A DNA stretch of 64,000 nucleotides from an uncultured Kiritimatiellota bacterium (GCA_934675625.1 CAKURH010000003.1:4503-68502); one strand, 5' to 3'; positions 15,349 through 64,000 are shown, counted from the stretch's first letter. Notes: generated by a model not told the origin, from the letters alone. Program-made: numbers and translations.

Positions 15349-15358
15349 AATGGTTCGT

Positions 15359-41113: not shown

Positions 41114-41154
41114 TAAACCCAAGGCCCAAATCAAGTGCCGAACCGGGGCGCGCG

Positions 41155-45691: not shown

Positions 45692-45748
45692 TTTTGCAGC
45701 AGGTTCCTCTGGACGTTCATTCTTAGGCTTCCCTAAAAAAGAGCGCAT

Positions 45749-47859: not shown

Positions 47860-48941
47860 CGTTTTAATGGTGGACGGGCGAGGAAGAGCGCGAGCGGCGC
47901 TTCGGCCCTGATTCGGAATGCCCCGCAGGCGGCGGGGACGAAAAACTGGTCTCCGGGGCCGATCGGCGCCACACCGGCGGCCGTCTCCAGCGCGCCGCGC
48001 CCCGACAGCACGAAGAGCCCGCAGAACGTCCCGTCCGCCGCCGGGAACGGCATCGCACCCGTGACGTCCAGCCGCTCCAGCGCGAAGCACGGCGTCGTGC
48101 GCGGCCCGACGAGCTCCGTCCGGCAAAATCCGTCGCCCGCTTCCATGACGCGCGGCGCCACCCGCTGTCGCGCGCGCGTCTCGGCCTCGTTCCGTCCGTC
48201 GTAGTGGAAGCACGTGAACATGCTGTCGAACCCGACGCCATAGTGGCACGCCGCATCGGAAATGCGGAATCCCTGCGGCGTCACCTTCTCCGTGCGGAAC
48301 GTGTAGTCGGTCGGCTCCTGAATCTCGACGAGAAGGCAACCCGCGCCGATGGCGTGCGGCGTGCCGCCCTCGATGAGGAACGTGTCGCCCGGCGCGACCT
48401 CGATGCGGTTGAGCATCGCAAGCATGGCCGGGATGTCCTGCCGGTCGAAGACGTTGCGCCACGCCGCCGGCGTCACGCCCGGCCTGAAGCCCAGGTAGAC
48501 GCACGGTCGCGCGCCGCCGATTTCCCGTCCGCCGACGATGTGCCAACATTCGGTCTTGCCGAACGGCGAGCCGAAGAGCCGTTGCGCCGCCGCGCGGTCG
48601 GGGTGGACCTGCACGCCGAGGCGCTCGGCCGCGTCGATGAGCTTGACGAGCACGGCGGGGGTCTGTCCCCACGTCGCGACGTGCGCCGCGCCGAGCAGTT
48701 CGACCGGATGCGCAGCCAGCGCGGCCTTCAGCGTGAGGTCTGTCCCCGCGACGCGGCAAAGTCCCTCGACGATCTCCTCGCGCCCCGGGTTGACGGCGCG
48801 GACGGCGGAGCAGATCCACTCCTCCGGGAAGTGCGTGTCGGCGGCTGGCGTGACGCCGTGCAGCTCGTCGAGGAACCTGCCGCCGAGATACGTCCGCCAC
48901 GCACGCGCGGACGTGAGCCGGATGGGCGCGTCAAACCTCAT
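47856..48941 (-). CDS. Class I phosphomannose-isomerase-like cupin
   Basis: Trimmed to MRFDAPIRLTSARAW (ATG 48941, ATGA overlap). Metal-ligand pattern QVHPD ... KTECWH ... GTPHAIGAG. Confidence 0.8.
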   Translation of the reverse strand: MRFDAPIRLTSARAWRTYLGGRFLDELHGVTPAADTHFPEEWICSAVRAVNPGREEIVEGLCRVAGTDLTLKAALAAHPVELLGAAHVATWGQTPAVLVKLIDAAERLGVQVHPDRAAAQRLFGSPFGKTECWHIVGGREIGGARPCVYLGFRPGVTPAAWRNVFDRQDIPAMLAMLNRIEVAPGDTFLIEGGTPHAIGAGCLLVEIQEPTDYTFRTEKVTPQGFRISDAACHYGVGFDSMFTCFHYDGRNEAETRARQRVAPRVMEAGDGFCRTELVGPRTTPCFALERLDVTGAMPFPAADGTFCGLFVLSGRGALETAAGVAPIGPGDQFFVPAACGAFRIRAEAPLALFLARPPLKR

Positions 48942-51169
48942 GCCGCCGTCGCCTCCGGGTTGACGCTCCGCACGCGGTCGACCACCAGCTTGCGGAACTT
49001 CGGCGAGAGCATCGCGAAGAACGCCGTGAACCCCGTCACGCGCACGACGAGGTCCGGATATTTCGCGGGATCCCTGTCCGCGTCGAGGATCTTCTGCGCG
49101 TCGACGATGTTGACGTTGAGGAGCGTGTTGCCGGTCGCGAGGATGGCGCGAACCATCGCGCACATCTTGTCGAGGCCCTCCGCGTCGTTCGCGACCATCG
49201 GGTCGACCTCCAGCTGCACCGGCGCCGTGTTGCCGTAGCCGGGCTGGATCGCCGCGATGGAATTGCACATCGCCGAGACCGCGCCGTCGTGCCGAAAGCC
49301 GCCGTTCGGGTTCGCGCCGTGGTTGATCGGCTCGCCCGCCTTGCGTCCGTTCGGCGTCGCCTTCAGCCGCGCGCCGAGCAGGATCGTGTTCGACCACGAG
49401 AAGAAGCCCGGAATGAAGTTGACGTGACGATAATCGTCCGCATGCTGCCGCACGAGGTCGCGCACAAGCGCCGTCCACAGCTTCGAGACGCGGACGGCCC
49501 AGGCGTCGCCGCGCGTCTCGCCCCCGCCGTAGCGTTCGGAGTGGCTGAGAAGCTGCCGGACGCGCTCGCCCTCGACGCCCGCGAAGTCCGCGTCGAGCCA
49601 CCGCTTCAGTTCCGCATACGAGAGGCGCTTCTCGCGGTCGCAGCGCTGTTCGAGCGCGGCGAAGCTGTCCGCGACGACCGCGAGCCCCGCGCCGTCCACG
49701 CAGATGTTGTAGTAGCTCGCGCCGCCGTCCGTGATGTTGACGCCCTTCTCGACGAGGCCGTGCTGCATCAGGTTGAGGATCAGCTCGGGCTGGCTTTCCG
49801 TCTGGTAGTTGAGATGGTGGATGATGCCCCGCCCGGTCGCGTCGACGGCGACCTTGAGGTGACGTCCGTAGATCTCCCAGAGCGCCTCCGCCGACTTCGC
49901 GCCGTCGGATGCCATCAACTCGTCCCACGCGACCTCGAACACTTTCGCGAGGTTGACCTTCACGGTGTCGTTCATCGTGTACTCGCGTCCGGGGATGCAC
50001 ATCCAGTGACATCCGGCGGCGACGCGGCGACGCGCGAGCTCCTTCGGGTAGCCGCAGCGCATGAAGCCCTCCATGAGCGCTTTGTCCGAGGAGTAGCGCG
50101 GCCAGCCCTGCCGGTTGCGGAAGAGACATTCGACCGACTTGCGGAAGAAGACGGGGTCGAGCCGGTCATGCACGCGGATCGTCAGGTTCGTCGCGAGATT
50201 GAGCCTGTCCGCCGCATCCAGCGCGAGGTAGCTGAGGTGGCACGTGCGGTCGTTGTCGTTCTCGTCCGGCCCGGCGAGCTGCCAGTAGCGGCTGTCCTGC
50301 AGGAAGAGGCACGCGAGGTAGAAGACGGCCTCGTCGTCCGTCAGGCGTCCGGCGGCGACGTCGCGTTCGTAGTAGGGATTGAACAGATCCTCCAGCTGTC
50401 CGCCCGCACTGCCCCGGTTGTAGGTGCGCGAGAGCATCGAGAACCAGCAGCTCCACTGAATCGCCTCGCGGAACGTCTGCGGCGGCTCGGTCGCGAGCCG
50501 CAGGTCAATCTCGCCCATCGTGCGCAGGTTCGCGGCGAGCTGCGCGTTGCGCTCCGTCCGCGCCAGCGCAAGGATCTCCTCGCCCGCGCGGCGGATGAAC
50601 GCGCTGACATGCTCGACGACGGTAATCTCCGCGTCGTAGAATGCGTGGTGCGTCGCGTCGTGCCGCGCGCGACAGTCCTTCAGCTCCTTCAGCACGCCGC
50701 CCCAGCCCTTCGCGAGCCCGATCTGCAGGTCGGGCGTGAAGTGGTGGCAGTTGTCGATGCCGGAGATGACCTGGTAGCGGTCGAAGACCGCCTGAAGGTC
50801 GGGGTAGGCGTAGGCGGGGTTCCACTTGCACATCGGCGGGCGCAGCCGCTCCAGGAAGAGGAAGCCCTTCGCCGCGAAAGCGTCGAGCGCGTCCACGTAG
50901 ATCGGGTGCTGGTCGAGGAGCGCGCAGTAGTTCTCGCACCACGCCTCGTAGCCGTAGATGGAGCCGTTCGGGTGGTTCGGCTTCAGCTTGTAGCGGAAGA
51001 CGTCCTGCTCGATGAGGCCGTAGTCGTCCTCGTCGGCGCCGCCGGCCTTCGCCTTCTCGGCGGTCTGCGCGACCTTGCGCGCCCGCAGGAGCGCAATGCG
51101 CTCGTCGTAGGTGAACGTGCGGTCGGCCGGAAACTCGTTGACGAACTGGATCTTGCTCATGGCCGTCAC
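48938..51169 (-). CDS. Glycyl radical enzyme (PFL2/dehydratase-like fold), divergent, 743 aa
   Basis: C-terminal glycyl-radical motif VVRVTGFTAFFAM (Gly713). The Cys loop AAGCHWMCIPG (Cys387) lies 326 residues upstream, which is the expected spacing. The N-terminus is PFL2-like. Confidence 0.88.
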   Translation of the reverse strand: MTAMSKIQFVNEFPADRTFTYDERIALLRARKVAQTAEKAKAGGADEDDYGLIEQDVFRYKLKPNHPNGSIYGYEAWCENYCALLDQHPIYVDALDAFAAKGFLFLERLRPPMCKWNPAYAYPDLQAVFDRYQVISGIDNCHHFTPDLQIGLAKGWGGVLKELKDCRARHDATHHAFYDAEITVVEHVSAFIRRAGEEILALARTERNAQLAANLRTMGEIDLRLATEPPQTFREAIQWSCWFSMLSRTYNRGSAGGQLEDLFNPYYERDVAAGRLTDDEAVFYLACLFLQDSRYWQLAGPDENDNDRTCHLSYLALDAADRLNLATNLTIRVHDRLDPVFFRKSVECLFRNRQGWPRYSSDKALMEGFMRCGYPKELARRRVAAGCHWMCIPGREYTMNDTVKVNLAKVFEVAWDELMASDGAKSAEALWEIYGRHLKVAVDATGRGIIHHLNYQTESQPELILNLMQHGLVEKGVNITDGGASYYNICVDGAGLAVVADSFAALEQRCDREKRLSYAELKRWLDADFAGVEGERVRQLLSHSERYGGGETRGDAWAVRVSKLWTALVRDLVRQHADDYRHVNFIPGFFSWSNTILLGARLKATPNGRKAGEPINHGANPNGGFRHDGAVSAMCNSIAAIQPGYGNTAPVQLEVDPMVANDAEGLDKMCAMVRAILATGNTLLNVNIVDAQKILDADRDPAKYPDLVVRVTGFTAFFAMLSPKFRKLVVDRVRSVNPEATAA

Positions 51170-51981
51170 CCCACCTTGACCGTCAGGCCCTTGACGTCCG
51201 CGAGTGCCGCGCGGATCTCGGCGAGCCTCGCCTCCGGGAACGGCTTCGCGTCCGCAAAGGCGTCCGCGACGCCCAGCGCCGCGCGCTTCGCGCCGCCGAG
51301 CGGATTGAAGTTCAGAACCTCATAGCGGACGATGTTTTCCATCTTCGAGATGTACTCGGCGATCGCGTGCAGGTTCTCGATGTCGTCCGTCACGCCCGGC
51401 ACGAGAGGCGTGCGCACGACCATCGGGATGCCGAGGCGGGACGTGCGCCCGATCGAGTTGAAGACCGTCGGGTTGTCGAGCCCCGTCTGCTCCTGATGCG
51501 GAATCGTCAGGTTCAGCTTCAGGTCGCACATGATGAAGTCCATCTTGCGGAGCATCGGCTCGATGACCTGCCAGGGCCGCGACATGTTCGTCTCGATCGC
51601 GACGGAGATTCCCTCGGCGTGGCAGGCGTCCGCGAGCGCGCACACGAATTCGGGGTGCAGCGATGGCTCCCCGCCCGAGACCGTCACGCCGCCGCCCGAC
51701 TCGGCGTAGTAGGCCCTGTCCTGCACGACCTCGCGCATCACCTCGGCGACGTCCATCTCGCGCGACGAGCGGACGCGCGCGCCGGCCGTGCAGCCCTCGG
51801 CACAGTGTCCGCAGCCGAGGCACTTTTCCCGGTAGAAGAGCTCGACCGGCTTCAGCGGAATCGTCTCCGGGTTGTGGCACCAGGGGCAGTGCATGTTGCA
51901 GCCCTGCAGGAAGACGGTCGTGCGGATGCCCGGCCCGTCCTGAAGCGAGAACCGCTGGATGTCCGTGACGTAGGCCTTCAT
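51166..51981 (-). CDS. Glycyl-radical-enzyme activating enzyme (radical SAM)
   Basis: Trimmed to MKAYVTDIQRFSLQDGPGIRTTVFLQGCNMHCPWCHN (CX3CX2C), with an auxiliary CLGCGHCAEGC motif. ATGA overlaps on both sides. Confidence 0.9.
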   Translation of the reverse strand: MKAYVTDIQRFSLQDGPGIRTTVFLQGCNMHCPWCHNPETIPLKPVELFYREKCLGCGHCAEGCTAGARVRSSREMDVAEVMREVVQDRAYYAESGGGVTVSGGEPSLHPEFVCALADACHAEGISVAIETNMSRPWQVIEPMLRKMDFIMCDLKLNLTIPHQEQTGLDNPTVFNSIGRTSRLGIPMVVRTPLVPGVTDDIENLHAIAEYISKMENIVRYEVLNFNPLGGAKRAALGVADAFADAKPFPEARLAEIRAALADVKGLTVKVG

Positions 51982-52760
51982 CGGCGCACCCCCTTCGCGT
52001 CGAAGGCGGCGTGCTGGCCCGTCGGGATGTGGGAGGCGTCCAGCCGCCGAAGCGCAAGCTCGTTGTCCGGGTAGAAGTCGATCCAGAGGTAGTGGCAGTG
52101 CTGGCCCGCGCGGATGTCGACGCCGTGGATCGACCCCAGCGGGATGTAGAGGAGCTCGTTGCCCTTCATCGGCGCCGCCTCGTAGTCGATCAGGACGTCC
52201 ATCTCGTTCTCCTCGAAGCTGAAGAAGAACTGGTCGAGCATCGGATGGTCGTGGCTCTTCACGGCGTCGATGCCGTAGGTCTCGACCGAGCCGAGCGCGA
52301 AGCGCGGAATGCGCCGCTGGTCGACGCAGCTGCGGGAGATCGTCTTCGCGCTCTTGTTGCGGTCGCGATACTGCTTCGAGTTGCGATAGACCTGAATGAG
52401 CGGAAACTGCGTCTTGTAGTCGGCCGCGAGCCGGTCGTCCTCCCCTGCGCGCCGAAACCAGCGGATCTCCAGGATCTGCACGTCGGAAAGCGCCTCGATG
52501 CGCACGGCCCGCTCCGGCGCGGGAACGAAGACGACGCGTTCGTGAAAGACGTATTCGTTGCCGTCCGTCGCGAAGCGCACGTCGCCCTTCAGGACGGTCA
52601 GCACATGGTGTCCGTCCATCGGGGCGAGTTCGAGCGCCGCGCCCGCGCGAATCGTGTGATGCCAGGGCGTCGCGCCCGGGATGCAACCGTCCAAGGCCTT
52701 CCGCGACTGGCTCTCCGTCGCCGAGAAGTCGAGGGCAACCTTCTGGATGTCGTATTTCAT
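51978..52760 (-). CDS. Bicupin protein (two cupin barrels), function unknown
   Basis: Trimmed to MKYDIQKVALDF (ATG 52760, ATGA overlap). The C-terminal barrel carries SHDHP...E...HGV metal-site-like residues. Confidence 0.7.
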   Translation of the reverse strand: MKYDIQKVALDFSATESQSRKALDGCIPGATPWHHTIRAGAALELAPMDGHHVLTVLKGDVRFATDGNEYVFHERVVFVPAPERAVRIEALSDVQILEIRWFRRAGEDDRLAADYKTQFPLIQVYRNSKQYRDRNKSAKTISRSCVDQRRIPRFALGSVETYGIDAVKSHDHPMLDQFFFSFEENEMDVLIDYEAAPMKGNELLYIPLGSIHGVDIRAGQHCHYLWIDFYPDNELALRRLDASHIPTGQHAAFDAKGVRR

Positions 52761-54487
52761 TTTCTCTTTTCGTTGTTCAGTTTCTTCAGGATGGGCCGCA
52801 GGGCGAGGCCCGACAGGGCCGCCACGGCCGTCAGCGCGCTCGCCGGGGCCGTCCGACCGTAAATCCACAGGCCGACGGCGAACATGAGCGCATAGACGCA
52901 GACGCACGCCACCGTCATCGCGAACAGGCCCCAGGCGATGTCATGCCGGTCGCCGCCGACCTTCGCGCGGAACGCCGCCCGCTTCGCCGCCTCGGTCGGC
53001 GGCGTCAGGAGCGTGACGGCGACCCACGCCGCCGTCGTGACCGCCATGACGACGAGGAGCCGCTGCCACGCGGCGAGCGCCGGCCCGCCGAGGTGCGGAT
53101 AGACGAGCTGCACGAAGACGGCCACGGCGAACGAGACGGCCATCGCCGTAATCTCGCTCCACGCGTTGATGCGCATCCAGAACCAGCGCAGGAGGTAGAT
53201 GAGGCCCGTGCCCGCGCCGATCTGGAGAATGAGGTTGAAGACCGCGCCCGCCGAAACGAGGTAGGGCGCGAGGACGCTGGAGAGGATCATGAGGACGACC
53301 GCCGAGACGCGCCCGACGTGGATGAGCTCGCGCTCGGACGCCGCCGGGCGGACGAACCGCTTCCAGAAGTCGTTCGCGAGGTAGTTCGAGCCCATCGACA
53401 GGTGCGCCGCGACCGTCGAGAACAGCGCGCCCATCATCGCCGCCGCGACGACGCCCAGCCAGCCGTTCGGCACGAACGTCAGCATGGCCGGATAGGCGAG
53501 GTCGCCCTTCACGAGCGACGGGTCGACGTGCGGGAACGCCCGCTGGAGCGAGGCGAGGTCGGGGAAGACGATGAGCGAGGCGAACGCCGTCAGGTACCAC
53601 GGCCAGGGGCGGATCGCGTAGTTCACGACCTGGTAGAGCATCGAGCCCGCGATGCAGTGGCCCTCGCTCTTCGCCGAGAGCATGCGCTGGACGATGTATC
53701 CGCCGCCGCCCGGCTCGCTGCCCGGATACCAGACGTTCCACCACTGGATCGCGACCGGGATCACGAACACGGCGACGAACGTGTCCGTGTCGTCGAGGGA
53801 CGGGAAGAACGAGAGGTGCGCCTGCACGGACGGGTTCGCCATCATCTGCGCGAAGCCGCCGACCTCCGGCAGGGCCAGCGCATAGTGCAGCCCGACGAAC
53901 GCGCCGACCAGGATGACAAGGAAGAGAACGAAGTCCGTGTAGATCGCGCCGCGAAACCCGCCGAGCGCCGAATAGGCGATCGAGGCGACCGACGTGACGA
54001 CCAGCACCGTCGTCTGGCTGACGCCGAAGAGCGTCTGCCCGATCTTGATCGCCGCGAGCATGCAGAGCGCCGTCGTGATCACGTTGAAGACGAGGCCGAG
54101 GTAGACGGCCCGGAACGCGCGCAGGAACGCCGCCGGCCTGCCGGAGTAGCGCAGCTCGTAGAATTCGACGTCGCTCTGCGCGCCCGACCGCACCCAGAGC
54201 TTCGCGTAGACGAAGACCGTCAGCATGCCCGTGAGGAGGAACGCCCACCACTTCCAGTTCTCGCCGAGCGACGAGTTGCGGATGAACTCGGTGAACATGT
54301 TCGCCGAGTTCGAGGAGGTCGACGCCGCGCACATCGAGACGCCGATGAGCCACCAGGGCATCGACCGCCCCGAGAGGAAGAAGTCCTTCGCGTCGCGGCC
54401 CGCCTTGCGCGAACACGCGAAGGCGATACCGAAGAGGACGGCGAAGAAGCCGAGGATGACGAGACCGTCGACGAGATTCAGGCGCAT
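52757..54487 (-). CDS. Sodium:solute symporter family (SSS/SGLT-like) transporter
   Basis: About 13 hydrophobic segments, with an N-terminus DFFLSGRSMPWW typical of the SSS family. Confidence 0.88.
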   Translation of the reverse strand: MRLNLVDGLVILGFFAVLFGIAFACSRKAGRDAKDFFLSGRSMPWWLIGVSMCAASTSSNSANMFTEFIRNSSLGENWKWWAFLLTGMLTVFVYAKLWVRSGAQSDVEFYELRYSGRPAAFLRAFRAVYLGLVFNVITTALCMLAAIKIGQTLFGVSQTTVLVVTSVASIAYSALGGFRGAIYTDFVLFLVILVGAFVGLHYALALPEVGGFAQMMANPSVQAHLSFFPSLDDTDTFVAVFVIPVAIQWWNVWYPGSEPGGGGYIVQRMLSAKSEGHCIAGSMLYQVVNYAIRPWPWYLTAFASLIVFPDLASLQRAFPHVDPSLVKGDLAYPAMLTFVPNGWLGVVAAAMMGALFSTVAAHLSMGSNYLANDFWKRFVRPAASERELIHVGRVSAVVLMILSSVLAPYLVSAGAVFNLILQIGAGTGLIYLLRWFWMRINAWSEITAMAVSFAVAVFVQLVYPHLGGPALAAWQRLLVVMAVTTAAWVAVTLLTPPTEAAKRAAFRAKVGGDRHDIAWGLFAMTVACVCVYALMFAVGLWIYGRTAPASALTAVAALSGLALRPILKKLNNEKRK

Positions 54488-54491: not shown

Positions 54492-56354
54492 TCACTTCCC
54501 GTAGAAGACGTAGCCGAGCGGCTTCACCTCGCGGCCGCGATAGGTGAACGGCGTGTCGTCGGAGTAGTTGACGACGATCTCCTCGCCGTTCTCCCAGCGC
54601 GTGCGGAAGACGTTCTCGGCGAGCCGGTCGTGGCGGTCGATGAACTCGTAGACGAGGTGCTTCATCGGCTGCCAGGCGTCGTACATCTCCTTCATCGGCG
54701 CGAGCGTCGCGTACTGCTGGAAGTAGAACGTCGGGCGTCCGCCGTATTCCCAGACCTTCAGCGTGCGGTGCGCCGCGTCCCACAGGTAGTCGCTCATGCC
54801 CGACATCTTGTGGATGTCCGTGCGCTTCGCGGGCGGAACGACCTTCTTCAGCGGGTCGCCGCCGCGTCCGTAGGAGGCGTCGACCGTCGCCCAGTAGGGC
54901 TGGCTCAGGATGATGCCGTTGTAGGCGATCTGCCAGAGCGGCACCTCGCCGTCGACGAGTTCCGTCGCCGGCTGCTGCTTCGAGGCGAACGTGCCCACGT
55001 AGAGCGCGTTGTCGAGCCCCGGCGCAAGGTGATCCATGCCGGCCTCGGACGAGTAGCCGCCGAAGACGGCGCGCGCCTTCTCGCACGTCTTGAGCTGCCA
55101 CTCCGCCATCTCCTTGCGGTTCGCGGGGTGGTTCGGCGCGTGGCACGGCGTCGGGTAGCGCGCGCTCGTCACGTCCACGTGGTGGATGCCGTCGAGGCCC
55201 ATCTCCTTCAGGTGCGCCAGATCCTCGTCGAGCCAGCGGTTGTTGACGACCTGGAAGCACGTGTGGTAGGCGAGACCGCCCTGCAGATAGCCGTAGACGC
55301 GCAAGTGGCCCTTCGGGTTGACGCACACGTCGTCCTCGTTCCAGCGGGGCCGTCCGCACGCGCGGTAGATGTTGTGGTTGTTCACGTGCACGCTCATGCG
55401 GTAGCCGAGCGACTTGCCGTAGGCGATCGCGTCCCTCATGCCCGCCTCGCCGCCCAGTTCCTCCGGCACCGGCCAGAGCTTCGGGAACGGGCCGTCGAAG
55501 CCGAGGTAGTTCCAGCCGACGATGCACATGTCGACGTCGTCCATCCCCAGGTCCTTCACCTGCTTCATGAGCTTCTTGTAGTCCGCGAACGTGCGCTTCC
55601 AGAGGATCGGCGGCATCGCGTGCGTCGGGTTGTCGCGGCTGTGCCCGTCGCAGTGCGCGAGCTTGCAGCGCATAAAGACGGACTTCGCCGACCATTCGAG
55701 CGCGGGGTTCCCCTTCACGCGTTCGCGGAGCGGCTTCACCCAGCCGCGCGCGAGATTCCAGTTCCGGTAGACCTTGGCCATGCCGGAGTAGTTCGCGTCG
55801 TCGCCCGTCAGCTCGTAGTAGTCGACCACGATGTCCTCGTAGGGGTCGAACTCGATCTGGTCGATCTCGAAGCGCGGATAGTAGTGGTAGACGCCCTTCT
55901 CGACGGACAGGTTCAGGATGAACTCCAGCCGCAGGCCCTTGACGATGCCGACCCAGCAACGGTCAGCCGTCTTGAGCCCGAAGATCGGCATCTGGAGGTG
56001 GCCGCGCGTCGACTGGAACTGGCCGTGCTCGCGGTCAAGCCGCCCGTAGCGGTTGTCGCCCGCGACCCAGTAGCCGTCCGCGCAGTTCGGCGCGAGCGCG
56101 CCATCCGGCACGACGTCGATCCACCGCGTCCGGCGCGGGATGTCCTTTGTCGCGAGCCGGTAGCGGTAGGCGCCGTCCGGCATGCGCTCGGCCTTCTGCG
56201 AAAGGCGATACTTCTCGCCATTCTGCTTCCAGATGCGGAAGAAGCCCTTCTCCAGTCCGGCGTCGGCCCGCGCCGCCGCCGTCGCGCATGCGAGCGCCGC
56301 GCCCAGCGCCAGCGCCTGCGGCAGAAGCCGGACGCGCCGCCCCGCCGTTTCCAT
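54492..56354 (-). CDS. Secreted paralog A (type 1) of an unassigned putative glycanase family
   Basis: Trimmed to METAGRRVRLLPQALALGAALACATAAARA. Shares FDPYEDIVVDYY, MCIVGWNYLGFDGPFPKLWPV, MSVHVNNHNIYR, HHVDVTSARYPTPCH and FGGYSSEAG with paralog C. Confidence 0.75.
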   Translation of the reverse strand: METAGRRVRLLPQALALGAALACATAAARADAGLEKGFFRIWKQNGEKYRLSQKAERMPDGAYRYRLATKDIPRRTRWIDVVPDGALAPNCADGYWVAGDNRYGRLDREHGQFQSTRGHLQMPIFGLKTADRCWVGIVKGLRLEFILNLSVEKGVYHYYPRFEIDQIEFDPYEDIVVDYYELTGDDANYSGMAKVYRNWNLARGWVKPLRERVKGNPALEWSAKSVFMRCKLAHCDGHSRDNPTHAMPPILWKRTFADYKKLMKQVKDLGMDDVDMCIVGWNYLGFDGPFPKLWPVPEELGGEAGMRDAIAYGKSLGYRMSVHVNNHNIYRACGRPRWNEDDVCVNPKGHLRVYGYLQGGLAYHTCFQVVNNRWLDEDLAHLKEMGLDGIHHVDVTSARYPTPCHAPNHPANRKEMAEWQLKTCEKARAVFGGYSSEAGMDHLAPGLDNALYVGTFASKQQPATELVDGEVPLWQIAYNGIILSQPYWATVDASYGRGGDPLKKVVPPAKRTDIHKMSGMSDYLWDAAHRTLKVWEYGGRPTFYFQQYATLAPMKEMYDAWQPMKHLVYEFIDRHDRLAENVFRTRWENGEEIVVNYSDDTPFTYRGREVKPLGYVFYGK

Positions 56355-56358
56355 CTTC

Positions 56359-58197
56359 TCAGTTCTCGAACAGTTCATGGCTGACCTCCTTGATGATGCG
56401 TCCGCGATAGGCGAACGGCTTTTCCGAATAGTTGACGACAAGTTCCTCGCCGTTCTCGTAACGCGTCGCGTAGACCTGCGGCGCGAGCTCGGCATGCTCG
56501 CGGATGAATTCCAGCTGAAGATGCCGCAGGGGCTTCCACGCCCGGTAGACGCGCGCGACGTCCGCGATCTGGCGGCGGTAGTCGGTGTAGTAGAACATCG
56601 GCCGCCCGCCGAACTCGAACAGCGTGAGGAGCGACTTCTCCGGCGTCTCGAGGAACTCGAAGACCTTGCGGCTCGCCCCCACGGCGTCCGACGTGCCGTT
56701 CGGCTCGCGCGGCACGCCCGCGTCAAGCGTCGCGTAGAACGGCGTGGACATGATGATGCCGTTGTAGACGATGGACCACGTGGGCAGGTAGCCGTCCACG
56801 AGCGACGTCTTCGGCACGCTCCAGCCGGGATACGGCGCCTGGTAGAGCACGTTGTCGAGCTCCGCCGCGAAGTGGTCGCAGCCGCACTCGGACGAATAGC
56901 CGCCGAACGCCGCGCGCGCCTTCCGCGCAATCCGGCGCAGCCAGCCGCGTTCCCCTTCGGACGAGTTCGGGTGGCGCGGGTCGTGGCACCGCTCCGGCAG
57001 GCGCGCGCTCATCACGTCAACATGGACGAGCCCGTCGAGGCCGAGATCCTTCATGTCCGCAAGATCCCTGTCAAAATACCTGTTGCAGATGACCTCGTAG
57101 CAGCTGTGGTAGACGGGTCCGCCGGGGAGCGTCGTGTAGCGGCGCACCTTCCCGTCCGGCCCTTTCGCGACGTCGGCTTCGCACCACCGCTTCGCGTTGC
57201 GGTAGAAGTTGTGCTGGTTCAGGTGAATCGACATGCGGTAGCCGAGCGACTTGCCGAACGCGATCGTCTCGCGCATCCCCGCGTCGCCGCCGAAGCGTTC
57301 GTCCGCCGGGAAGAGGTCGGGGAACGGGCCGTCGTGTCCACCCGGCTGAAAGCCGACGAGGCACATCTCCGCCTTGTCGATGCCCGCGTCACGGCAGTCC
57401 TGCATGACCTTCCGGAAGTCGGCGAACGTGTAGTCGACGACGACGGGCGGCATGTTCGTCTCCCAGTCCGCCCGCGTCGACGTGCGGCGGTCGCAGCGAC
57501 CGAACTTGCAGCGGAGGAAGATTGATTCGGACGCGTACGCGAGCGCGGGATTTCCTTTTATGCGTTCCCGCAGCGGACGGCATCCGCCCTCGGTGAGCTG
57601 GTGGGCGCGGTAGCGGCGCGCCATGCCCGAATAGTTTGCGTCCGCGCCCGTGAGCGGATAGAAGTCGACCACGATGTCCGCGTAGGGGTCGAACTCGATG
57701 CGCGGCAGGTCGTAGCGCGCGAAGACGGAGTAGACGCCGTTTGTGACGTGTACGTACTGCCGGTGTTCGAGCGGCATGCCCTTGACAATCGCAACGAAGC
57801 AGACTTCCGGCGTCTTGATGCCGAAGATCGGCATCCGCCACGTCCGCGTGAACGTCTCCTGCGGCTTCTTCTTGCCCGGTTCCGGCACGGCTGCGTCGCG
57901 GTTGAACGCGCCCCAGCGGCAGTCGCCGAGCGTCCAGTAGCCGTCGCATTTCGGCACGACCGCCGCGTCGGAAACGACGTCAAGCCATTTCATGTCGCGC
58001 GTCATGTCGATTGTGCGGAACTGCGCGCGATAGGCGCCGTCCGGCTGACGCGCGGCGGTGGCCCTGCGCGTCTCGACGCGCCCGTCGGCGTAGGTGATGC
58101 GGTACGTGACCCGCGCGAGCGGACTCTCCGCCCGCGCCGCCATCGCGCACGCACAGAAAACACCCGCGAGAAACAGTCCTTTGATCGTCTTCTTCAT
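56359..58197 (-). CDS. Secreted paralog B (type 2) of the same family
   Basis: Signal peptide MKKTIKGLFLAGVFCACAMAARA. Motifs MCLVGFQPGGHDGPFPDLFPADERFGG, HLNQHNFYR, CHDPRHPNS and FGGYSSECG. Closest to paralog D. Confidence 0.8.
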   Translation of the reverse strand: MKKTIKGLFLAGVFCACAMAARAESPLARVTYRITYADGRVETRRATAARQPDGAYRAQFRTIDMTRDMKWLDVVSDAAVVPKCDGYWTLGDCRWGAFNRDAAVPEPGKKKPQETFTRTWRMPIFGIKTPEVCFVAIVKGMPLEHRQYVHVTNGVYSVFARYDLPRIEFDPYADIVVDFYPLTGADANYSGMARRYRAHQLTEGGCRPLRERIKGNPALAYASESIFLRCKFGRCDRRTSTRADWETNMPPVVVDYTFADFRKVMQDCRDAGIDKAEMCLVGFQPGGHDGPFPDLFPADERFGGDAGMRETIAFGKSLGYRMSIHLNQHNFYRNAKRWCEADVAKGPDGKVRRYTTLPGGPVYHSCYEVICNRYFDRDLADMKDLGLDGLVHVDVMSARLPERCHDPRHPNSSEGERGWLRRIARKARAAFGGYSSECGCDHFAAELDNVLYQAPYPGWSVPKTSLVDGYLPTWSIVYNGIIMSTPFYATLDAGVPREPNGTSDAVGASRKVFEFLETPEKSLLTLFEFGGRPMFYYTDYRRQIADVARVYRAWKPLRHLQLEFIREHAELAPQVYATRYENGEELVVNYSEKPFAYRGRIIKEVSHELFEN

Positions 58198-60080
58198 TCT
58201 CTCCGTGCCTCCGTGACGCCGTGTGACTTTTCGGCCTGACTGTCTGCATAGAATTCGTAGCCGAGCGGCTTCACCGTGCGCCCCCGGTAGGCAACAGGCC
58301 TGTCCGAGTAGTTCACCGCGATTTCATCGCCGTTCGCCCACGTCGTCACAAAGGCGTCCGCCGCGATTTCGCGATGGTCGTCGATGAGCTCAAGCTGCAA
58401 GTGCTTCAGCGGCTGCCAGAGGTCATACATCCGCTTCATCGGCTCCAGCGTCTCGTATCGGTTGAAGTAGAACGTGGGACGTCCGCCCCATTCCAGCACC
58501 TTGAGAATCCGCGCCGAGGCGTCGGCGCCGCCCAGCCAGTCGCCCGGCCCCATTTTCGCAAGCGGGAGGCTGCCGTTCCCGTGCGGATAGGTCGGGTCGC
58601 ACGTCGAGAACGTCGGCTGGCTCATGATGATGCCGCCATAGGCGATCGGGAAGAGCGGCAGGATGCCGTCCGACATCCAGCGGCCCTCCTTCGGTTCCTC
58701 GTCCCGATACTGGTTGACGGGATACGGGCAGACAAAGAGCACGTTGTCGAGCGCGGGCGCGAAATGGTCGAAGCTCGACTCCGAGCTGTAGCCGCCAAAG
58801 GCCGCCCGCGCCTTGAGCGCCGTCTTCATCTGCCAGTCGGCCATCTGCTGCCGGTTCGCCGGATGGCGCGGGTCATGGCACGGCGTCGGGTAGCGCGCGC
58901 TCGTCACGTCCACGTGGTGCACGCCGTTGAGGCCCATGTCGCGCAACTGGCGGAAGTCGGCGTCGAGCCAGCGGTTGTTGACGACCTGAAAGCACGTGTG
59001 GTAGGCCAGCCCGCCCATGATGACCTGGTATTCGCGGCAGGTGCCGTCGACGTTCTTGCAGACGTCCTGCCGCTTCCAGAACTGGCCGCTCCCGCGATAG
59101 ATGTTGTGGTTGTTCACGTGCACGCTCATGCGGTAGCCAAGCGACTTGCCGAGCGCAATCGCCTCGCGCATCTTCGCCTCGCCGCCAAGCGGCTCGTAAA
59201 CCGGCCAGAGCTTCGGGAACGGCCCGTCGAAGCCGAGGTAGTTCCAGCCGACGATGCACATGTCCAGGTCGTCCATGCCCATCGCCTTGGCCTGCCGCAG
59301 GAGATCCATGTACGAATCGAACGTGCGGTTCACGACAATCGGCGGCATCGAGTAGTTCGGCATCTGCCGCGCATGTCCCTGGCAGTTCGCCAGTTTCGTG
59401 CGCACGTACATCGACTTCGCCGACCACGCGAGCGCCGGGTTGCCGACGATGCGCGCCTTCAGCGGCTTGACCCAGCCGCGCGCGAGGTTCCAGTCGCGAT
59501 ACTTCCGGGCCATGCCGGCGTAGCTCGCGTCCCTCCCCTCCAGCGGATAGACGTCAACGACGATGTCCTCGTAGGGATCGAACTCGATGCGGTCGATGTT
59601 GAAGCGCGGGAATATCCAGTACTTGCCCCGTTCGCCCTTTTCGGCGACGACCTTGAGCGAATATTCGAGGCGAAGGCCCTTCACGATGGCCACAAACGCA
59701 TAGGCGTCGCGCTTGACGCCGAAGATCGGCAGATGGCTCTCGCGGATCTCCAGTTCGCCCGCGTCCCGGTCGAAGCGCCCCCAGCGGTAGTCGCCGCTGA
59801 CCCAATAGCCCGGCCCCTTCGAGATGTACGCCGCCACGTCGGGGATGACGTCGAGCGTGCGCGCCTCGCGCGGGATGTCGGCCGTCGGCACGCGGTAGCG
59901 GTAGGCGCCGTCAGGCTCGCGCGTCGCCTGGATCCGGCGTTGCTGACACGGCTTTCCGTCGCCCGGCGTGATGCGCAGGACGCCCTGCTCGAATCGCGGA
60001 TTCGCCCAGAGGGCGGCCGCCGCGCCCGACAGCGCAACCGTCAGGATCCATGTGCGGCTCATTGTCTTTTTGTTTTTCAT
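58194..60080 (-). CDS. Secreted paralog C (type 1) of the same family
   Basis: Signal peptide MKNKKTMSRTWILTVALSGAAAALWA. Near-identical blocks to paralog A. A 16-aa C-terminal extension is read through the duplicated leader. Confidence 0.8.
   Translation of the reverse strand: MKNKKTMSRTWILTVALSGAAAALWANPRFEQGVLRITPGDGKPCQQRRIQATREPDGAYRYRVPTADIPREARTLDVIPDVAAYISKGPGYWVSGDYRWGRFDRDAGELEIRESHLPIFGVKRDAYAFVAIVKGLRLEYSLKVVAEKGERGKYWIFPRFNIDRIEFDPYEDIVVDVYPLEGRDASYAGMARKYRDWNLARGWVKPLKARIVGNPALAWSAKSMYVRTKLANCQGHARQMPNYSMPPIVVNRTFDSYMDLLRQAKAMGMDDLDMCIVGWNYLGFDGPFPKLWPVYEPLGGEAKMREAIALGKSLGYRMSVHVNNHNIYRGSGQFWKRQDVCKNVDGTCREYQVIMGGLAYHTCFQVVNNRWLDADFRQLRDMGLNGVHHVDVTSARYPTPCHDPRHPANRQQMADWQMKTALKARAAFGGYSSESSFDHFAPALDNVLFVCPYPVNQYRDEEPKEGRWMSDGILPLFPIAYGGIIMSQPTFSTCDPTYPHGNGSLPLAKMGPGDWLGGADASARILKVLEWGGRPTFYFNRYETLEPMKRMYDLWQPLKHLQLELIDDHREIAADAFVTTWANGDEIAVNYSDRPVAYRGRTVKPLGYEFYADSQAEKSHGVTEARRE
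58195..58227. repeat. 33-nt repeat (start codon plus 30-nt leader of type-2 genes), copy 1
   Basis: CATTCTCTCCGTGCCTCCGTGACGCCGTGTGAC is identical at 61914..61946. Confidence 0.9.
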
Positions 60081-60110
60081 GGTCTTCTGCCTGTCTTCGG
60101 ATTTTCCGTT

Positions 60111-61916
60111 TCAGTTCGCGGACGCATACAGCTCATACGCGAGCGGCTTCACCGCGCGCCCCCGGTAGGCGAAGTCCGAGGCCGTGTAGTTGACGACGAC
60201 CTCCTCGCCGTTCTCGTAGCGCGTCGCGAACACGTCCGGCGCGAGTTCGACATGCTCGCGGATGAACGCGAACTGCAGGTGCTTCAGCGGCTGCCAGAGG
60301 TCGTACATCCGCTTCATCGGCGCGAGGTCCCGGTAGTCCGCATAGTAGAACATCGGACGCCCGTTGAGCTCGAAGACCTTGAGCGTGCGCCGCGCCGGCG
60401 TCCCGAGATAGCCCGTGACCTCCGTGTGGGGGCCGACCGCGTCCGTCCGTCCGCTGCCTTCGCGCGGATAGGGCGCGTCAATCGTCGCGTAGAACGGATT
60501 CGACAGGATGATGCCGGAATACGCGACGTGCCAGACGGGGAAACAGCCTTCGACCAGTTCGGTCTTCGGACTGTGCCACCCCGGATAGCTGCTGACATAG
60601 AGCACGTTGTCCAGAATCGGCGCCACGTGGTCGATGCCGCATTCCGAGCTGAAGCCGCCGAAGCGGGCACGCGCCTTCTCGCCGATGCGCTTCTGCCACT
60701 CGGCCATGCGCGCACGGCTGTTCGGATGGCGCGGGTCGTGGCAGGGGATCGGCGCGGTGGCGCTCGTCACGTCGACGTGGAAGAGCCCGTTGATGCCGAA
60801 CGACGCCATGTCGTCCATGTCCTTGTCGCAATACCTGTTGCAGATGACCTCGAAGCAGCTGCGGTAGACCTGTCCGCCGGGATAGACGGTATACTTGATC
60901 GGCTGGCCGTACCGGTCCTTCGCGACGTCCGCCAGGTTCCAGCGCTTCGCGCTCCGGTAGAAGTTGTTCTGGTTGATGTGCATGTCCATGTGATAGCCGA
61001 GCGACCGTCCGTAGCGGATGGCCTCGACCATCTTCGCCTGCCCGCCGAAGCGTTCGTCCGCCGGGAAGAGGTCGGGGAACGGGCCATCGTGCCCGCCCGG
61101 CTGGAAGCCGACGAGGCACATCTCGGCCTGGTCGATGCCCATCTCCTTCGCGCGGCGCATGATGTCCTTGAAGTCGTCGAACGTGTGGTCGACCACGACG
61201 GGCGGCATCGCCTTCAGCCAGTCCGCCGGCCCCGACTTCGTGCGGTCGCAGCGGCCGAACTTGCAGCGGACGAAGATCGACTCGGCCGCATACGCGAGAT
61301 TGGGATTCCCCTTGACCCGTTCACGCAGCGGCTTCACCTCGCCACGGCCGAGCTGATAGGCGCGGTAGAGCCGCCCCATCGCCGAGTAGTTCGCGTCCGC
61401 GCCCGCAAGCGGATAGTAGTCGATGACGAAATCCTCGTAGGGATTGAACCCGACGGCCGTCAGGCGCAGCTGCACAAAGTGCTCGTAGACGCCCTCCCGC
61501 ACGTCGATGCCCTCGGTCGTCTCGTAGCGCATGCCCTTGACGATGCCGCACCAGGCCGTCTGCGGGCCCGTCTTGCCGCCAAAGAGCGTCGTGCGCAGAT
61601 CCATCCGAATCGGCTGGCCGTCCCGGCGCGTGTAGGCGCCCCAGCGCCCGTCATTCAGCATCCACCAGCCCGGTTCGCCCGCCCGGCAACGGCCCGCGAG
61701 GTTCAGGACGCGGATCGAGCGGATGTCGGGCGTCATCCGAATCGTCGGGAAGGCGAAGCGCCAGGCGCCATCCGGCTGTCGCGCCAGACGAACAACATTC
61801 GTCTCAACGGTGCCGTTCAGGCGCTCGACCGCCACTTCCGCCTGATCGAGCGGCCCCGCCGCCTCGGCGGCAAGCGCCGCGCAAAAAGCGACCGCAAAAA
61901 ACATCCCTTTCATCAT
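60111..61916 (-). CDS. Secreted paralog D (type 2) of the same family
   Basis: Signal peptide MMKGMFFAVAFCAALAAEAAG. Motifs as in paralog B. Confidence 0.8.
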   Translation of the reverse strand: MMKGMFFAVAFCAALAAEAAGPLDQAEVAVERLNGTVETNVVRLARQPDGAWRFAFPTIRMTPDIRSIRVLNLAGRCRAGEPGWWMLNDGRWGAYTRRDGQPIRMDLRTTLFGGKTGPQTAWCGIVKGMRYETTEGIDVREGVYEHFVQLRLTAVGFNPYEDFVIDYYPLAGADANYSAMGRLYRAYQLGRGEVKPLRERVKGNPNLAYAAESIFVRCKFGRCDRTKSGPADWLKAMPPVVVDHTFDDFKDIMRRAKEMGIDQAEMCLVGFQPGGHDGPFPDLFPADERFGGQAKMVEAIRYGRSLGYHMDMHINQNNFYRSAKRWNLADVAKDRYGQPIKYTVYPGGQVYRSCFEVICNRYCDKDMDDMASFGINGLFHVDVTSATAPIPCHDPRHPNSRARMAEWQKRIGEKARARFGGFSSECGIDHVAPILDNVLYVSSYPGWHSPKTELVEGCFPVWHVAYSGIILSNPFYATIDAPYPREGSGRTDAVGPHTEVTGYLGTPARRTLKVFELNGRPMFYYADYRDLAPMKRMYDLWQPLKHLQFAFIREHVELAPDVFATRYENGEEVVVNYTASDFAYRGRAVKPLAYELYASAN

Positions 61917-61946
61917 TCTCTCCGTGCCTCCGTGACGCCGTGTGAC
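61914..61946. repeat. 33-nt repeat, copy 2
   Basis: Identical to 58195..58227. Here it is intergenic. Confidence 0.9.
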
Positions 61947-61952: not shown

Positions 61953-64000
61953 TTACCGAATGAGCAGGAGCGACCCGCGCGCAAGCCGCAGGACGGGGCC
62001 GGTCGCCGCGCCACCGTCCGCGACAAGTTCGACGACCGCGCCCGCCGGCAGGCGGCCGAGCTCCAGAATCCCCGTCGCCGCGTCCAGTTCGCCCACGACG
62101 ACGCCGTTGACCTTCACGACGAGCTTGCCGTCCGTCACCGTCGCCCGAACCAGCCACGACAGGTCAGACGCCGCGTCCACGACCGCCGTGAGGCTGCCGC
62201 CGGACGCGAGCGAGAGCCGCCCGTCCTCTATGCGCACGTCGCCCGCTGTCCCTGTCACGGTCGCCGTGCCGCGCCGCGCGAACGCCTTCGTGCAGTCGGC
62301 CATCCGATCCAGCTCGTAGCAGCCGATGTCGATCGTGCCGTTCTGGACGCGCTGGACGCCCGCGAGATCCGTCCCGTCCGGCGCGGCCGCATTAGCGCCG
62401 CGATCCACACCGACGAAGTCCGCCGTCGGATGCCCGTCCCACGCTTCCGCCCAGGTTACCTCGACCGTCTGGTTGTCGAGGAGACAGTCCGTCGCGTTCA
62501 CGCCGTTCGTCACCACCCAGTTCCACGACTGCCAGCCAATCTTCGGCACGAGGCAGTTCACGAGCGTCGGCATCGCCATGTTCGCCATCGTCGGCGCGAG
62601 GATCAGCGCCGAGTTGCGGATGACCGCGCCGTCCGCCGCCTCGCCGAACGAGTAGGCGCGCGTCGCGTTGCCGAGGCTTGCGTTGTCATTGAGGAACGTG
62701 CAGCTGTCGATCCGCTCGTAGCCCTTCAGGAGGCTGCCGCCGCGATTGCCCGTGAAGAGGCAGTTCTCCGCGACGCGCAGCCAGCCGACGGAATACGCCC
62801 CGCCCATCGCCCAGTTGTTGCGGAACACGCACCGCCGGAACGTGCCGCCGACGACTGCGCCGTACTGATACGAATGGCTGTTCTCGATCACGCAGTCCTC
62901 GACGGTCGCCGTCGCGTCCGCCAGAACGCCCGCCGCGCAGCCGTCATCCGTCGCGGTCGCCTTCGTCTGGCAGAGCCCGTCCGCGACCGTGACGCCCTTC
63001 AGCGTCGCGCCGGCCATCAGGACAACGCCACGGACAAGCTCGCCCGCGCCCTCCGCCACGAAGCCGCCGCGAATCGTCGTCTGGTCGGACCCGGCACCTG
63101 CCAGCGTCATCTGCTCCCGCACGCAGACGCGCGCCGGCACGGCGAAGCTCTTGCCGTCGACAAGCGGCTGAAGCTGCGTCATCGTGCCCTCGGCATACGT
63201 GCCGGCCGCCAGATGCAGCGTGTCGCCGCAGCCGGCAACCGCGAGCGCCCCCGCCAGCGTCCGCTTCGCCGTCGCCGCCGTCAGGCCGTCGCCGCTGTCG
63301 TCCGGACGCGCCGCGTCCGCATAGACGTCCTTCGGCTCGTAGCGCGTCTGGAACGCGCCCGCCGTCACCTTCCCCGCCACGACTTCGACGGGATTCCCCT
63401 CCAGGTCGTCCACGAGAACCGTCCACGGCGCAGGCAGGCTGATCGCGGCCTTCTGCGCCACGTCCCACGCGCCGATCGCCGCCGAACCCGCCAAGAGACG
63501 GCCGAAGCCGCCGTCGGGATTGGCCACGAGGGCCGCATCCGTCGTGAAGCCGCCCGTCACGGCAATCGCGTACGGGTTCTGGTCGAAGACGGAGCCGACG
63601 GTCGGCGTCGCCTTCTCGAGCTTGCCGCCGCAGACGACGACACCCTGAAGGAAGCTCGACACCGAGGCCACGCTCTTCCACACGCCCTGATACCGTGCGG
63701 ACACGGTGCAGCAATTGGCCTCGCATCCGTTGGCCAGCAGCTGATTGTTCCTGAAGTCGTTCTCGTAGAGGTAGCACGACGAGAGAATCGCCTGACGCAC
63801 GACCGAATTGCCGCCCGTCGGCTGGGCGCTGCCGCGAATCACGCACCGCTGAAGCCAGCCGCCCCAGACGGCCGCCGCGTTGCCGCCCGCACAGTCCACG
63901 ACGTCGCTGTCGAGCAGCTGGACGCGCGTCATGTCAAAGCCCTGCGCCTTGTCCGCCGCGACGAAGAAGCCGCCGGCCTTCGCCGCGTCGCCCCACGTCT
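61953..64000 (-). CDS. Right-handed parallel beta-helix repeat protein (5' end beyond window)
   Basis: Track ORF 61953..63932, but the frame stays open to 64000 (…TWGDAAKAGGFFVAADKAQGFDMTRVQ…). Has the DUF1565-like opener TAKRTLAGALAVAGCGDTLHLAAGTYAEG. The protein ends ...RGSLLLIR. Confidence 0.8.
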   Translation of the reverse strand, partial: TWGDAAKAGGFFVAADKAQGFDMTRVQLLDSDVVDCAGGNAAAVWGGWLQRCVIRGSAQPTGGNSVVRQAILSSCYLYENDFRNNQLLANGCEANCCTVSARYQGVWKSVASVSSFLQGVVVCGGKLEKATPTVGSVFDQNPYAIAVTGGFTTDAALVANPDGGFGRLLAGSAAIGAWDVAQKAAISLPAPWTVLVDDLEGNPVEVVAGKVTAGAFQTRYEPKDVYADAARPDDSGDGLTAATAKRTLAGALAVAGCGDTLHLAAGTYAEGTMTQLQPLVDGKSFAVPARVCVREQMTLAGAGSDQTTIRGGFVAEGAGELVRGVVLMAGATLKGVTVADGLCQTKATATDDGCAAGVLADATATVEDCVIENSHSYQYGAVVGGTFRRCVFRNNWAMGGAYSVGWLRVAENCLFTGNRGGSLLKGYERIDSCTFLNDNASLGNATRAYSFGEAADGAVIRNSALILAPTMANMAMPTLVNCLVPKIGWQSWNWVVTNGVNATDCLLDNQTVEVTWAEAWDGHPTADFVGVDRGANAAAPDGTDLAGVQRVQNGTIDIGCYELDRMADCTKAFARRGTATVTGTAGDVRIEDGRLSLASGGSLTAVVDAASDLSWLVRATVTDGKLVVKVNGVVVGELDAATGILELGRLPAGAVVELVADGGAATGPVLRLARGSLLLIR

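Follow-up and report, generated by a model that had tools for sequence, protein, structure and literature searches.

The subject of this analysis is a 64,000-nt stretch of DNA, hereafter the window, from an uncultured Kiritimatiellota bacterium (GCA_934675625.1 CAKURH010000003.1:4503-68502). Positions 54492-61916 are filled by four long consecutive open reading frames (ORFs) on the minus strand, designated P1 to P4 in order of transcription (Table 1), which encode paralogs of the Pfam family DUF5696 (PF18952). An earlier reading of the sequence (the original prediction) had described four tandem proteins of about 600 aa directly upstream of a transporter and a glycyl radical enzyme (GRE) module. 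Both points are confirmed, the first by proteins of 601-628 aa and the second by annotation of the neighbouring genes.

P1-P4 are all intact and full length, and the GC content at their third codon positions (GC3, 0.87-0.89) is typical of real genes in a window of 65-70% GC. The P3 start and the P2 stop overlap (ATGA). The P4 start is placed at ATG 56378, with AGGAGG 6 nt upstream; an alternative ATG at 56354 gives a 620-aa form, to which all P4 residue numbers below refer. A mechanical ORF call that extends P4 to a TTG start at 56930 is an upstream extension overlapping P3 and was discarded as a start.

At the DNA level the array repeats four times, at intervals of about 1.85 kb and with 61-79% identity. 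In trimmed columns the proteins are 56% (P1/P3) and 60% (P2/P4) identical within types and 43-47% identical between types; the full alignment gives 57% for P1/P3 and 59% for P2/P4. Alignment reproduces the alternating order that had been predicted, type 2, type 1, type 2, type 1 in the direction of transcription, where type 2 is represented by MCLVGFQPGGHDGPFPDLFPADERFGG (P1, P3) and type 1 by MCIVGWNYLGFDGPFPKLWPV (P2, P4). Seven motifs had been proposed as common to all four proteins. P1 deviates in four of the seven (FNPYED, GNPNL, HINQNNFYR, NGRPMFY). Twenty-three positions are fixed within each type and different between the types, 18 of which lie in P4 residues 200-375, inside the barrel described below. 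Because the type differences concentrate in the barrel, the two types probably represent two linkage or subsite specificities.

The N-termini of P1-P4 consist of charged residues followed by a hydrophobic segment (12-aa Kyte-Doolittle mean of 1.95-2.5) and an Ala-rich end (ARA/AEA/WAN). A hydrophobic N-terminal segment is also found in the upstream protein and the GH127-like protein of the same cluster, and is absent from the cytoplasmic neighbours, namely the cupin-like protein, the GRE activase, the GRE and the phosphomannose isomerase-like (PMI-like) protein (Kyte-Doolittle score <=0.53). By this hydropathy all four paralogs look exported, consistent with the signal peptides originally assigned to them, and they would be periplasmic. 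An RRxRLLP stretch in P4 and its orthologs could be a twin-arginine translocation (Tat) signal.

Relationship to GH129 and predicted catalytic residues

Membership in DUF5696, which had been no more than a guess, is clear from the Pfam scores of the four paralogs (98.7, 109.1, 110.0, and 118.7 bits against a cut-off of 25.6). The best stretches cover about positions 122-492 of the 612-position profile, with a second stretch in each protein, and all close homologs of P1-P4 carry DUF5696 as a precomputed Pfam assignment. In a Pfam scan at E <= 1 the only other models matched were GH101 and DUF6259, both weakly and locally; the GH101 model matches about 90 aa in P1 and in P3 (24.2 bits in P3, under the cut-off). 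P1-P4 are a divergent subgroup of DUF5696. At 50% identity the family falls into about 500 clusters with a threshold of E <= 1e-30 and about 2300 when this is relaxed to E <= 1e-10. Neither Pfam nor NCBIfam assigns a characterised family to P1-P4, in agreement with the original prediction, and the NCBIfam scan returned no family for them. Full-text literature searches for DUF5696 and PF18952 found no paper, and the literature on GH129, new glycoside hydrolase (GH) families and Kiritimatiellia yielded no characterised DUF5696 member. Of the 125 homologs, few have a source name, which reads either “DUF5696 domain-containing protein” or “hypothetical protein.” Fusions to GH76-like or GH43/GH130-like domains occur in some members of the family.

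An AlphaFold2 model of P4, built from an alignment of 63 homologs (32-89% identity), reached a predicted local distance difference test score (pLDDT) of 93.8 and a predicted template modelling score (pTM) of 0.91. The predicted structure begins with a beta-sandwich, continues through a core of the (beta/alpha)8 type and ends in beta domains, so that the glycanase-like barrel proposed from sequence is recovered in the model, flanked by beta-sandwich domains. The eleven top Foldseek matches of this model in the PDB are all GH129 or GH129-like. The match to NagBb extends over about 600 columns (E 2e-29, template modelling (TM) score 0.71-0.73, 16-17% identity) and is followed by ZgGH129 (TM 0.63-0.66); after GH129, matches to GH101 (E ~1e-12 to 1e-13), GH36, and GH31 (E ~1e-12) appear. 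A profile of 63 family members matches NagBb at E 1e-34, ZgGH129 at E 5e-13, and GH101 at E 1e-7, and a phmmer search of the PDB with P2 also matches NagBb (E 2.7e-5).

NagBb is the GH129 alpha-N-acetylgalactosaminidase of Bifidobacterium bifidum (PDB 5wzn/5wzp/5wzq/5wzr), with Asp435 as the nucleophile and Glu478 as the acid/base. Its three-part architecture is shared with P1-P4 over the full length. In the profile alignment (positions counted from the alignments), the HVDV motif falls on YLD435V of NagBb and the SSE motif on SSE478. This HVDV Asp and SSE Glu are invariant in P1-P4 and in 63 of 63 diverse homologs, across which about 30 further positions are also invariant. In P4 the predicted nucleophile is Asp394 (55173-55175) and the predicted acid/base is Glu437 (55044-55046). 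The Cys and His of a C-x4-H motif are likewise common to NagBb and the paralogs (CSHPEH versus CHDPRHP), and the conserved Cys277, Cys366, Cys404, and His409 of P4, which may constitute a metal site, align with His, Cys, Cys, and His residues of NagBb. NagBb acts in the cytoplasm of a Gram-positive bacterium, whereas P1-P4 carry putative export signals.

The second relative, ZgGH129 (DagB, ZGAL_3152), is an alpha-1,3-(3,6-anhydro)-D-galactosidase from Zobellia galactanivorans (PDB 5opq, 8rzg-8rzk), an exo-acting, periplasmic or outer-membrane enzyme that works beside GH127 enzymes. It shares the fold and the nucleophile Asp with P1-P4, but the profile match is weaker and confined to the first half of the barrel, and ZgGH129 lacks a counterpart of NagBb Glu478, the Glu that DUF5696 keeps. 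The GH101 enzymes EngBF and SpGH101 have the barrel core in common with P1-P4. However, these are multidomain proteins of >1100 aa with target-normalised TM scores of 0.23-0.29, and their similarity is limited to a short motif region.

P1-P4 are best described as members of an uncharacterised sister family of GH129, set apart from it by the Pfam models; a match to the dbCAN GH129 model is possible. They are probably retaining glycosidases. Every characterised relative takes alpha-linked sugars of galacto configuration, and both of the nearest act in exo mode, which favours exo-alpha-glycosidases. The original suggestion that they are depolymerases is doubtful, since NagBb and ZgGH129 each release one sugar, and an exo role following an endo-acting partner appears more likely.

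Elsewhere in the window, a DUF6259 protein contains the “GhDxxxPdffP...GG” motif region also seen in DUF5696 and NagBb (E 0.0012 and 19% probability by hhalign) and is possibly a distant member of the GH101/GH129 lineage.

History of the array

In a neighbour-joining tree (500 bootstraps, trimmed columns), all type 2 sequences group together with 97% support and all type 1 sequences with 100%. P1 forms a clade with sequences from loci L010, L009, and L008, P3 with those from L040, L001, L012, and L011, and P4 belongs to a clade that excludes P2, each with 100% support. Orthologs of P1 are 89% identical in L010/L005 and 75% in L195, and those of P3 are 87% identical in L040 and 79% in L001/L012/L011. 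For P4 the values are 91% (L040), 89% (L010), 83% (L001), and 80% (L195). The P2 ortholog, P0014, is 77.5% identical and adjoins a GH92 gene. On these identities each of the four lineages is closer to its orthologs in other species (75-91%) than to its in-cluster partner, and P1 + P3 or P2 + P4 were recovered as exclusive sisters in none of the 500 bootstraps. The duplicated two-gene unit of the original prediction is correct as a description of the arrangement; as a recent event it is not, and in-situ tandem duplication of recent date is ruled out by the phylogeny.

The two units of the window split long before these species did, the window MutS being 68% identical to that of UBA3624. The window protein is 94% identical to the MutS of a Kiritimatiellaeota metagenome-assembled genome (MAG) from a Nepalese human gut, and the other good MutS matches are all to gut or rumen Kiritimatiellia or “Verrucomicrobia” MAGs.

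The gene orders in other species show that the type 2 + type 1 pair is a recurrent unit. In L040, from a sister species, the order is upstream protein, P3′, P4′, SSF (sodium:solute symporter), cupin, activase, GRE (88% identical), and PMI-like. In L195 a GH29 gene is followed by P1′, P4′, and SSF, after which the contig ends. L010 has the upstream protein, P1′, P4′, a radical-SAM (rSAM) gene, and GH31. In L001 a divergent AraC regulator gene of the PAS-AraC type precedes P4′, P3′, and GH2, and in L194 the order is GH92, P2′, and the beginning of a gene resembling that of the upstream protein. Opitutales, Lentisphaeraceae, and Verrucomicrobiaceae MAGs also carry two to four DUF5696 genes in tandem. 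In the sister species represented by L005 (3888-6304) and L010 (about 13739-16128), the rSAM protein that follows the P1′/P4′ pair and precedes GH31 has 260 aa, belongs to the GRE-activase type, and shares 32% identity with the window activase; no GRE is visible nearby.

P1 and P3 also share a perfect 34-nt repeat, made up of a 31-nt leader and the ATG (GTCACACGGCGTCACGGAGGCACGGAGAGAATGA), of which exactly two copies exist in the window (zero expected by chance). The flanks diverge immediately on both sides of the repeat, and the P1 and P3 coding DNA is only ~61-65% identical. Within its sequence CACGG occurs three times and GGA twice, with one GGA belonging to the Shine-Dalgarno box; the repeat does not occur in the leaders of the L040 and L010 orthologs. 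Its second copy overlaps the 3′ end of P2, where the leader is read as coding and gives P2 a 15-aa C-terminal tail (SQAEKSHGVTEARRE; 58194-58240, minus strand) that the other paralogs lack and that ends in a TGA overlapping the P3 ATG. The tail suggests a junction formed by recombination. The repeat itself could be a recent recombination junction joining the two units, or a selected translational element.

The surrounding gene cluster

The array lies within a cluster that runs from the gene for the upstream protein to the gene for a GH127-like protein (Table 1). All junctions along this run are 4-nt overlaps or gaps of <=36 nt, no terminator-like sites above chance were found within it, and the cluster is presumably co-transcribed. 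The same cluster is found, at 99-100% protein identity, in same-species human-gut contigs from several metagenomes, including Hadza samples. Its last tightly coupled member, the GH127-like gene, belongs to the cluster in this species only and is absent after the L040 cassette. Beyond it, an 80-nt gap is followed by genes for the BcrAD/HGD-D fusion, MutS, GH29, and an ABC-F protein.

Table 1. Coordinates of the DUF5696 array and associated features in the window.
Feature	Coordinates	Strand	Description
Upstream protein	61953-64000	minus	C-terminal 659 aa of 1262; first cluster gene, runs off window end
34-nt repeat, copy 1	61913-61946	minus	Leader + ATG of P1
P1 (originally gene D)	60111-61916	minus	DUF5696 paralog, type 2, 601 aa; PF18952 E 4e-28; GH101 model 29.8 bits
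P2 (originally gene C)	58194-60080	minus	DUF5696 paralog, type 1, 628 aa; Pfam E 2.9e-31
34-nt repeat, copy 2	58194-58227	minus	Leader + ATG of P3, overlaps P2 3′ end
P3 (originally gene B)	56359-58197	minus	DUF5696 paralog, type 2, 612 aa; Pfam E 1.6e-31
P4 (originally gene A)	54492-56378	minus	DUF5696 paralog, type 1, 628 aa; Pfam E 3.5e-34
SSF sodium:solute symporter	52757-54487	minus	576 aa; PF00474 E 5e-31; starts 4 nt past P4 stop
Cupin-like protein	51978-52760	minus	260 aa, weakly cupin-like; constant GRE-cassette member
GRE activating enzyme (radical SAM)	51166-51981	minus	271 aa; TIGR02494 262.8 bits, cut-off 174
Glycyl radical enzyme (GRE)	48938-51160	minus	740 aa; Pfam PFL-like + Gly_radical
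Class I phosphomannose-isomerase-like cupin	47856-48941	minus	361 aa; manA 68.5 bits (below cut-off of 116); PDB 1qwr E 2e-17
GH127-like protein, predicted exported	45829-47859	minus	676 aa; PF07944 E 3.6e-27
BcrAD_BadFG-type ATPase + HGD-D/double-cubane-like fusion	43610-45748	minus	712 aa, between GH127-like gene and mutS
GH29 alpha-L-fucosidase	39645-41129		13 kb downstream of array
DUF6259 protein	28999-31062	minus	687 aa

In three species the SSF gene comes immediately after a P4-type gene (SSF identity 88% in L040 and 78% in L195), and two of these three show the cassette in full. The GH29 gene also has a 55% identical ortholog in L195 (6596-7930). Because this ortholog lies directly upstream of P1′/P4′/SSF, the fucosidase is a recurring companion of the DUF5696 array.

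The first gene of the cluster is seen at full length in the same-species contigs L002-L004 (L002 1290-5078). Its product has no Pfam match and only nine homologs found among 5.8 billion proteins, and such homologs precede the DUF5696 pairs in L040, L010, L009, and L195. It contains two internal repeats, “YVDA/YADAARP.D.GDGLT.ATAKR” / “YVDA..GDG..TA.AKRTI,” typical of the start of right-handed beta-helices, and a possible lipobox (LLAC). The AlphaFold2 model is poor (pLDDT 58) and its Foldseek matches are generic beta-helices with TM ~0.2, a hint of a beta-helix fold. The protein is a candidate for the endo-acting partner.

The glycyl radical enzyme cassette

The cassette of activase, GRE, 260-aa cupin-like protein, and PMI-like protein is constant in 72 gut/rumen MAG loci, with GRE identities of 65-84%. 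Its hosts span three phyla and include Oscillospiraceae, Christensenellaceae, Lachnospiraceae, Sphaerochaetaceae, other Spirochaetales, and Kiritimatiellia. In other genomes of the Planctomycetes-Verrucomicrobia-Chlamydiae (PVC) group (L043, L091, L109) the SSF gene is part of the cassette, and a gene for a 440-aa Gfo/Idh/MocA protein comes after the cassette in other PVC genomes. The most frequent families among 129 cassette-flanking proteins are Gfo/Idh/MocA oxidoreductases (27), xylose-isomerase-like TIM proteins (18), and AraC regulators (14), a pattern consistent with a free sugar or polyol being catabolised. The BcrAD/HGD-D fusion has no counterpart at other GRE loci and was rejected as a cassette member. 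The 260-aa protein has no PDB relative by sequence or profile, marginal cupin matches aside. Literature searches found no description of the cassette, and a June 2026 review of GREs lists no such enzyme.

The GRE falls under every NCBIfam equivalog cut-off; hydroxyproline dehydratase, propanediol dehydratase, and choline lyase were rejected as identities with scores far under theirs. The best solved relative in the PDB is E. coli PflD (170 bits), the C-O lyase of 1,5-anhydromannitol-6-phosphate, which together with YbiW makes up the “anhydroglycolysis” GREs of that organism. Like PflD, the window enzyme would be a sugar-metabolising GRE with a dedicated activase. The Gly loop reads VRVTGFTAFF. 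The Cys loop, AGCHWMCIPG, is invariant in 71 loci and has CHW in place of the CVE of PflD; the CXE glutamate, which every characterised GRE eliminase or isomerase has and which PflD and YbiW use, is missing from it. Moreover, the window cluster differs from the PflD system in having no phosphotransferase system (PTS) or aldolase gene and in the constant presence of two cupin-type partners. The chemistry of PflD cannot be transferred to this GRE, and its unusual Cys loop suggests reactions other than those of the known eliminases and isomerases.

Functional interpretation

With a probability of about 0.55, we propose that P1-P4 are exported DUF5696 glycoside hydrolases, sister to GH129, that feed the SSF and GRE cassette. 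The enzymes would act in the periplasm by retaining double displacement, as in GH129 and GH101, with the HVDV Asp as nucleophile and the Glu of FGG(Y/F)SSE as acid/base. They would trim oligosaccharides, perhaps made by the beta-helix-like protein of the first cluster gene, and free a small sugar. This sugar would be imported by the adjacent SSF symporter and catabolised in the cytoplasm by the cupin-like protein, the PMI-like isomerase, and the GRE with its activase. The four-gene array would have arisen when two old, diverged type 2 + type 1 units were joined in this species. Exported enzymes, a membrane transporter, and cytoplasmic enzymes together form the layout expected of a catabolic operon. 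We infer the retaining mechanism, the exo action, and the link to the GRE pathway; for this last link, which rests on synteny in three closely related species, the odds are roughly even.

Several observations weigh against the proposal. Hydrolase activity, stereochemistry, and substrate are carried over from relatives at 16-17% identity. NagBb uses Trp398 as the stacking platform for N-acetylgalactosamine (GalNAc). This residue aligns with Tyr in P1, Ile in P2, and Leu in P3 and P4 (family consensus Leu), and three of the four positions changed in a NagBb quadruple mutant also differ in the alignments (His to Arg, His to Cys, Asp to Val), so the pocket differs from that of NagBb. The link to the GRE is lineage-specific. 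No DUF5696 gene is near the cassette in about 70 cases from Clostridia, Spirochaetes, and other PVC bacteria, and the DUF5696 pairs of L001, L010, and L194 occur without the cassette, being followed by GH2 or by rSAM and GH31, or preceded by GH92. Among 107 neighbours at 22 loci of the wider DUF5696 family, no Pfam family is enriched, and three further DUF5696 contexts (L035-L037) are unrelated to one another. Finally, the three species with DUF5696-SSF adjacency are close relatives, and shared ancestry could explain the adjacency. The original idea that the array feeds the GRE pathway is plausible, favoured by the tight cluster and by the recurrence of the adjacency in other species, and weakened by the separate occurrence of cassettes and DUF5696 pairs.

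The alternative that fares best treats the DUF5696 array and the SSF-GRE cassette as functionally separate modules brought together by an insertion in a single Kiritimatiellia lineage, with P1-P4 working alongside GH29/GH92/GH2-type exo-glycosidases on a glycoprotein or plant glycan. We consider this possible, if doubtful. The cassette is mobile over three phyla and never lies beside DUF5696 outside this lineage, the L001 pair has the same type of PAS-AraC regulator and is followed by GH2, and other orthologs adjoin GH92, GH29, or GH31 or are fused to the GH76-like or GH43/GH130-like domains mentioned above. The GH29, GH92, GH2, GH31, and GH127-like neighbours and the fusions give loose hints of glycoprotein or plant-wall glycans as substrates. 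Independence is harder to reconcile with the 4 nt between the P4 stop and the SSF start, a junction with no terminator-like site, with the position of a P4-type gene directly before SSF in three species, and with a division into exported, membrane, and cytoplasmic proteins that resembles a single catabolic operon.

P1-P4 might instead be ordinary GH129-type alpha-N-acetylgalactosaminidases acting on mucin (Tn antigen) or blood-group glycans, with the GRE neighbours unrelated. NagBb is their closest relative in both structure and sequence and both of its catalytic residues are kept, the habitat is the human gut, and the 440-aa protein after the cassette in other PVC genomes is of the Gfo/Idh/MocA type, which is also the fold type of the GH109 alpha-N-acetylgalactosaminidases. 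This explanation is nevertheless unlikely given the low identity to NagBb and the loss of the Trp398 platform. The GH129 Pfam model gave no match at E <= 1 where DUF5696 did, and the presence of two distinct types in arrays of up to four copies in many genomes argues for several specificities.

Less likely again are anhydro-sugar-releasing or lyase-type enzymes resembling ZgGH129, whose product would have its ether ring opened by the GRE as PflD and YbiW do. A carrageenan locus in Zobellia offers a parallel, in which GH127 and GH129-like enzymes constitute two families of 3,6-anhydro-D-galactosidases, accompanied by sulfatases and dauABCD. ZgGH129 is the second-best structural match, the window cluster includes a GH127-like gene, the best solved relative of the GRE is a C-O lyase, and Gfo/Idh/MocA and xylose-isomerase-like TIM genes flank GRE cassettes. 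However, Pfam scans of the window detected no sulfatase or dauABCD-type gene, leaving the GH127-like gene as the only element in common, and that gene is missing from the sister-species cluster (L040). The hosts live in the gut or rumen of people and animals whose diet does not include red algae, the family profile is far nearer to NagBb than to ZgGH129, the GRE lacks the CXE glutamate of PflD/YbiW, and no kinase or PTS in the cluster would make a sugar phosphate. That P1-P4 are catalytically inactive glycan-binding or structural proteins on a glycosidase fold is very improbable, given the invariance of the Asp, the Glu, and about 30 other positions over 63 homologs and the intact state of all four copies.

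The proposal of GH129-related hydrolases feeding the cassette also has a bolder form, in which DUF5696 is a new GH or lyase-type family whose periplasmic members free an unusual sugar from a glycan of the diet or the host, the sugar then entering a radical route not described before and run by the four-gene cassette. This form is rather unlikely. If true, the Kiritimatiellia cluster would be the first glycan-to-GRE operon and would indicate what a mechanistically new class of GREs acts on. DUF5696 is a catalogued family that is tandem-expanded in gut and rumen Kiritimatiellia, Lentisphaerae, and Opitutales, all poorly understood glycan degraders, and a GH129-like retaining glycosidase with two types would be a concrete target for a new CAZy family or GH129 subfamily. 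The coupling to the SSF and GRE cassette would offer a handle on both, the sugar released by P1-P4 being a candidate GRE substrate.

Other features of the window

The stretch at 20000-35000 has a GC content of 0.52-0.63, compared with 0.65-0.71 elsewhere in the window, and may have been horizontally acquired. An Rfam scan of the window found no RNA family, ruling out an rRNA operon as the content of this low-GC stretch. It encodes several proteins without a Pfam match, a metallophosphoesterase, a 1093-aa bacterial TSP3-repeat protein, and a 1309-aa protein in which an esterase (BD-FAE/alpha-beta hydrolase) is joined to a rhamnosidase-like six-hairpin domain. Nearer the start of the window, minus-strand genes encode a 1387-aa protein with a weak GH127-type match (2471-6634), a 260-aa GH16 protein (13072-13854), and a KDPG/KHG aldolase (13859-14506).

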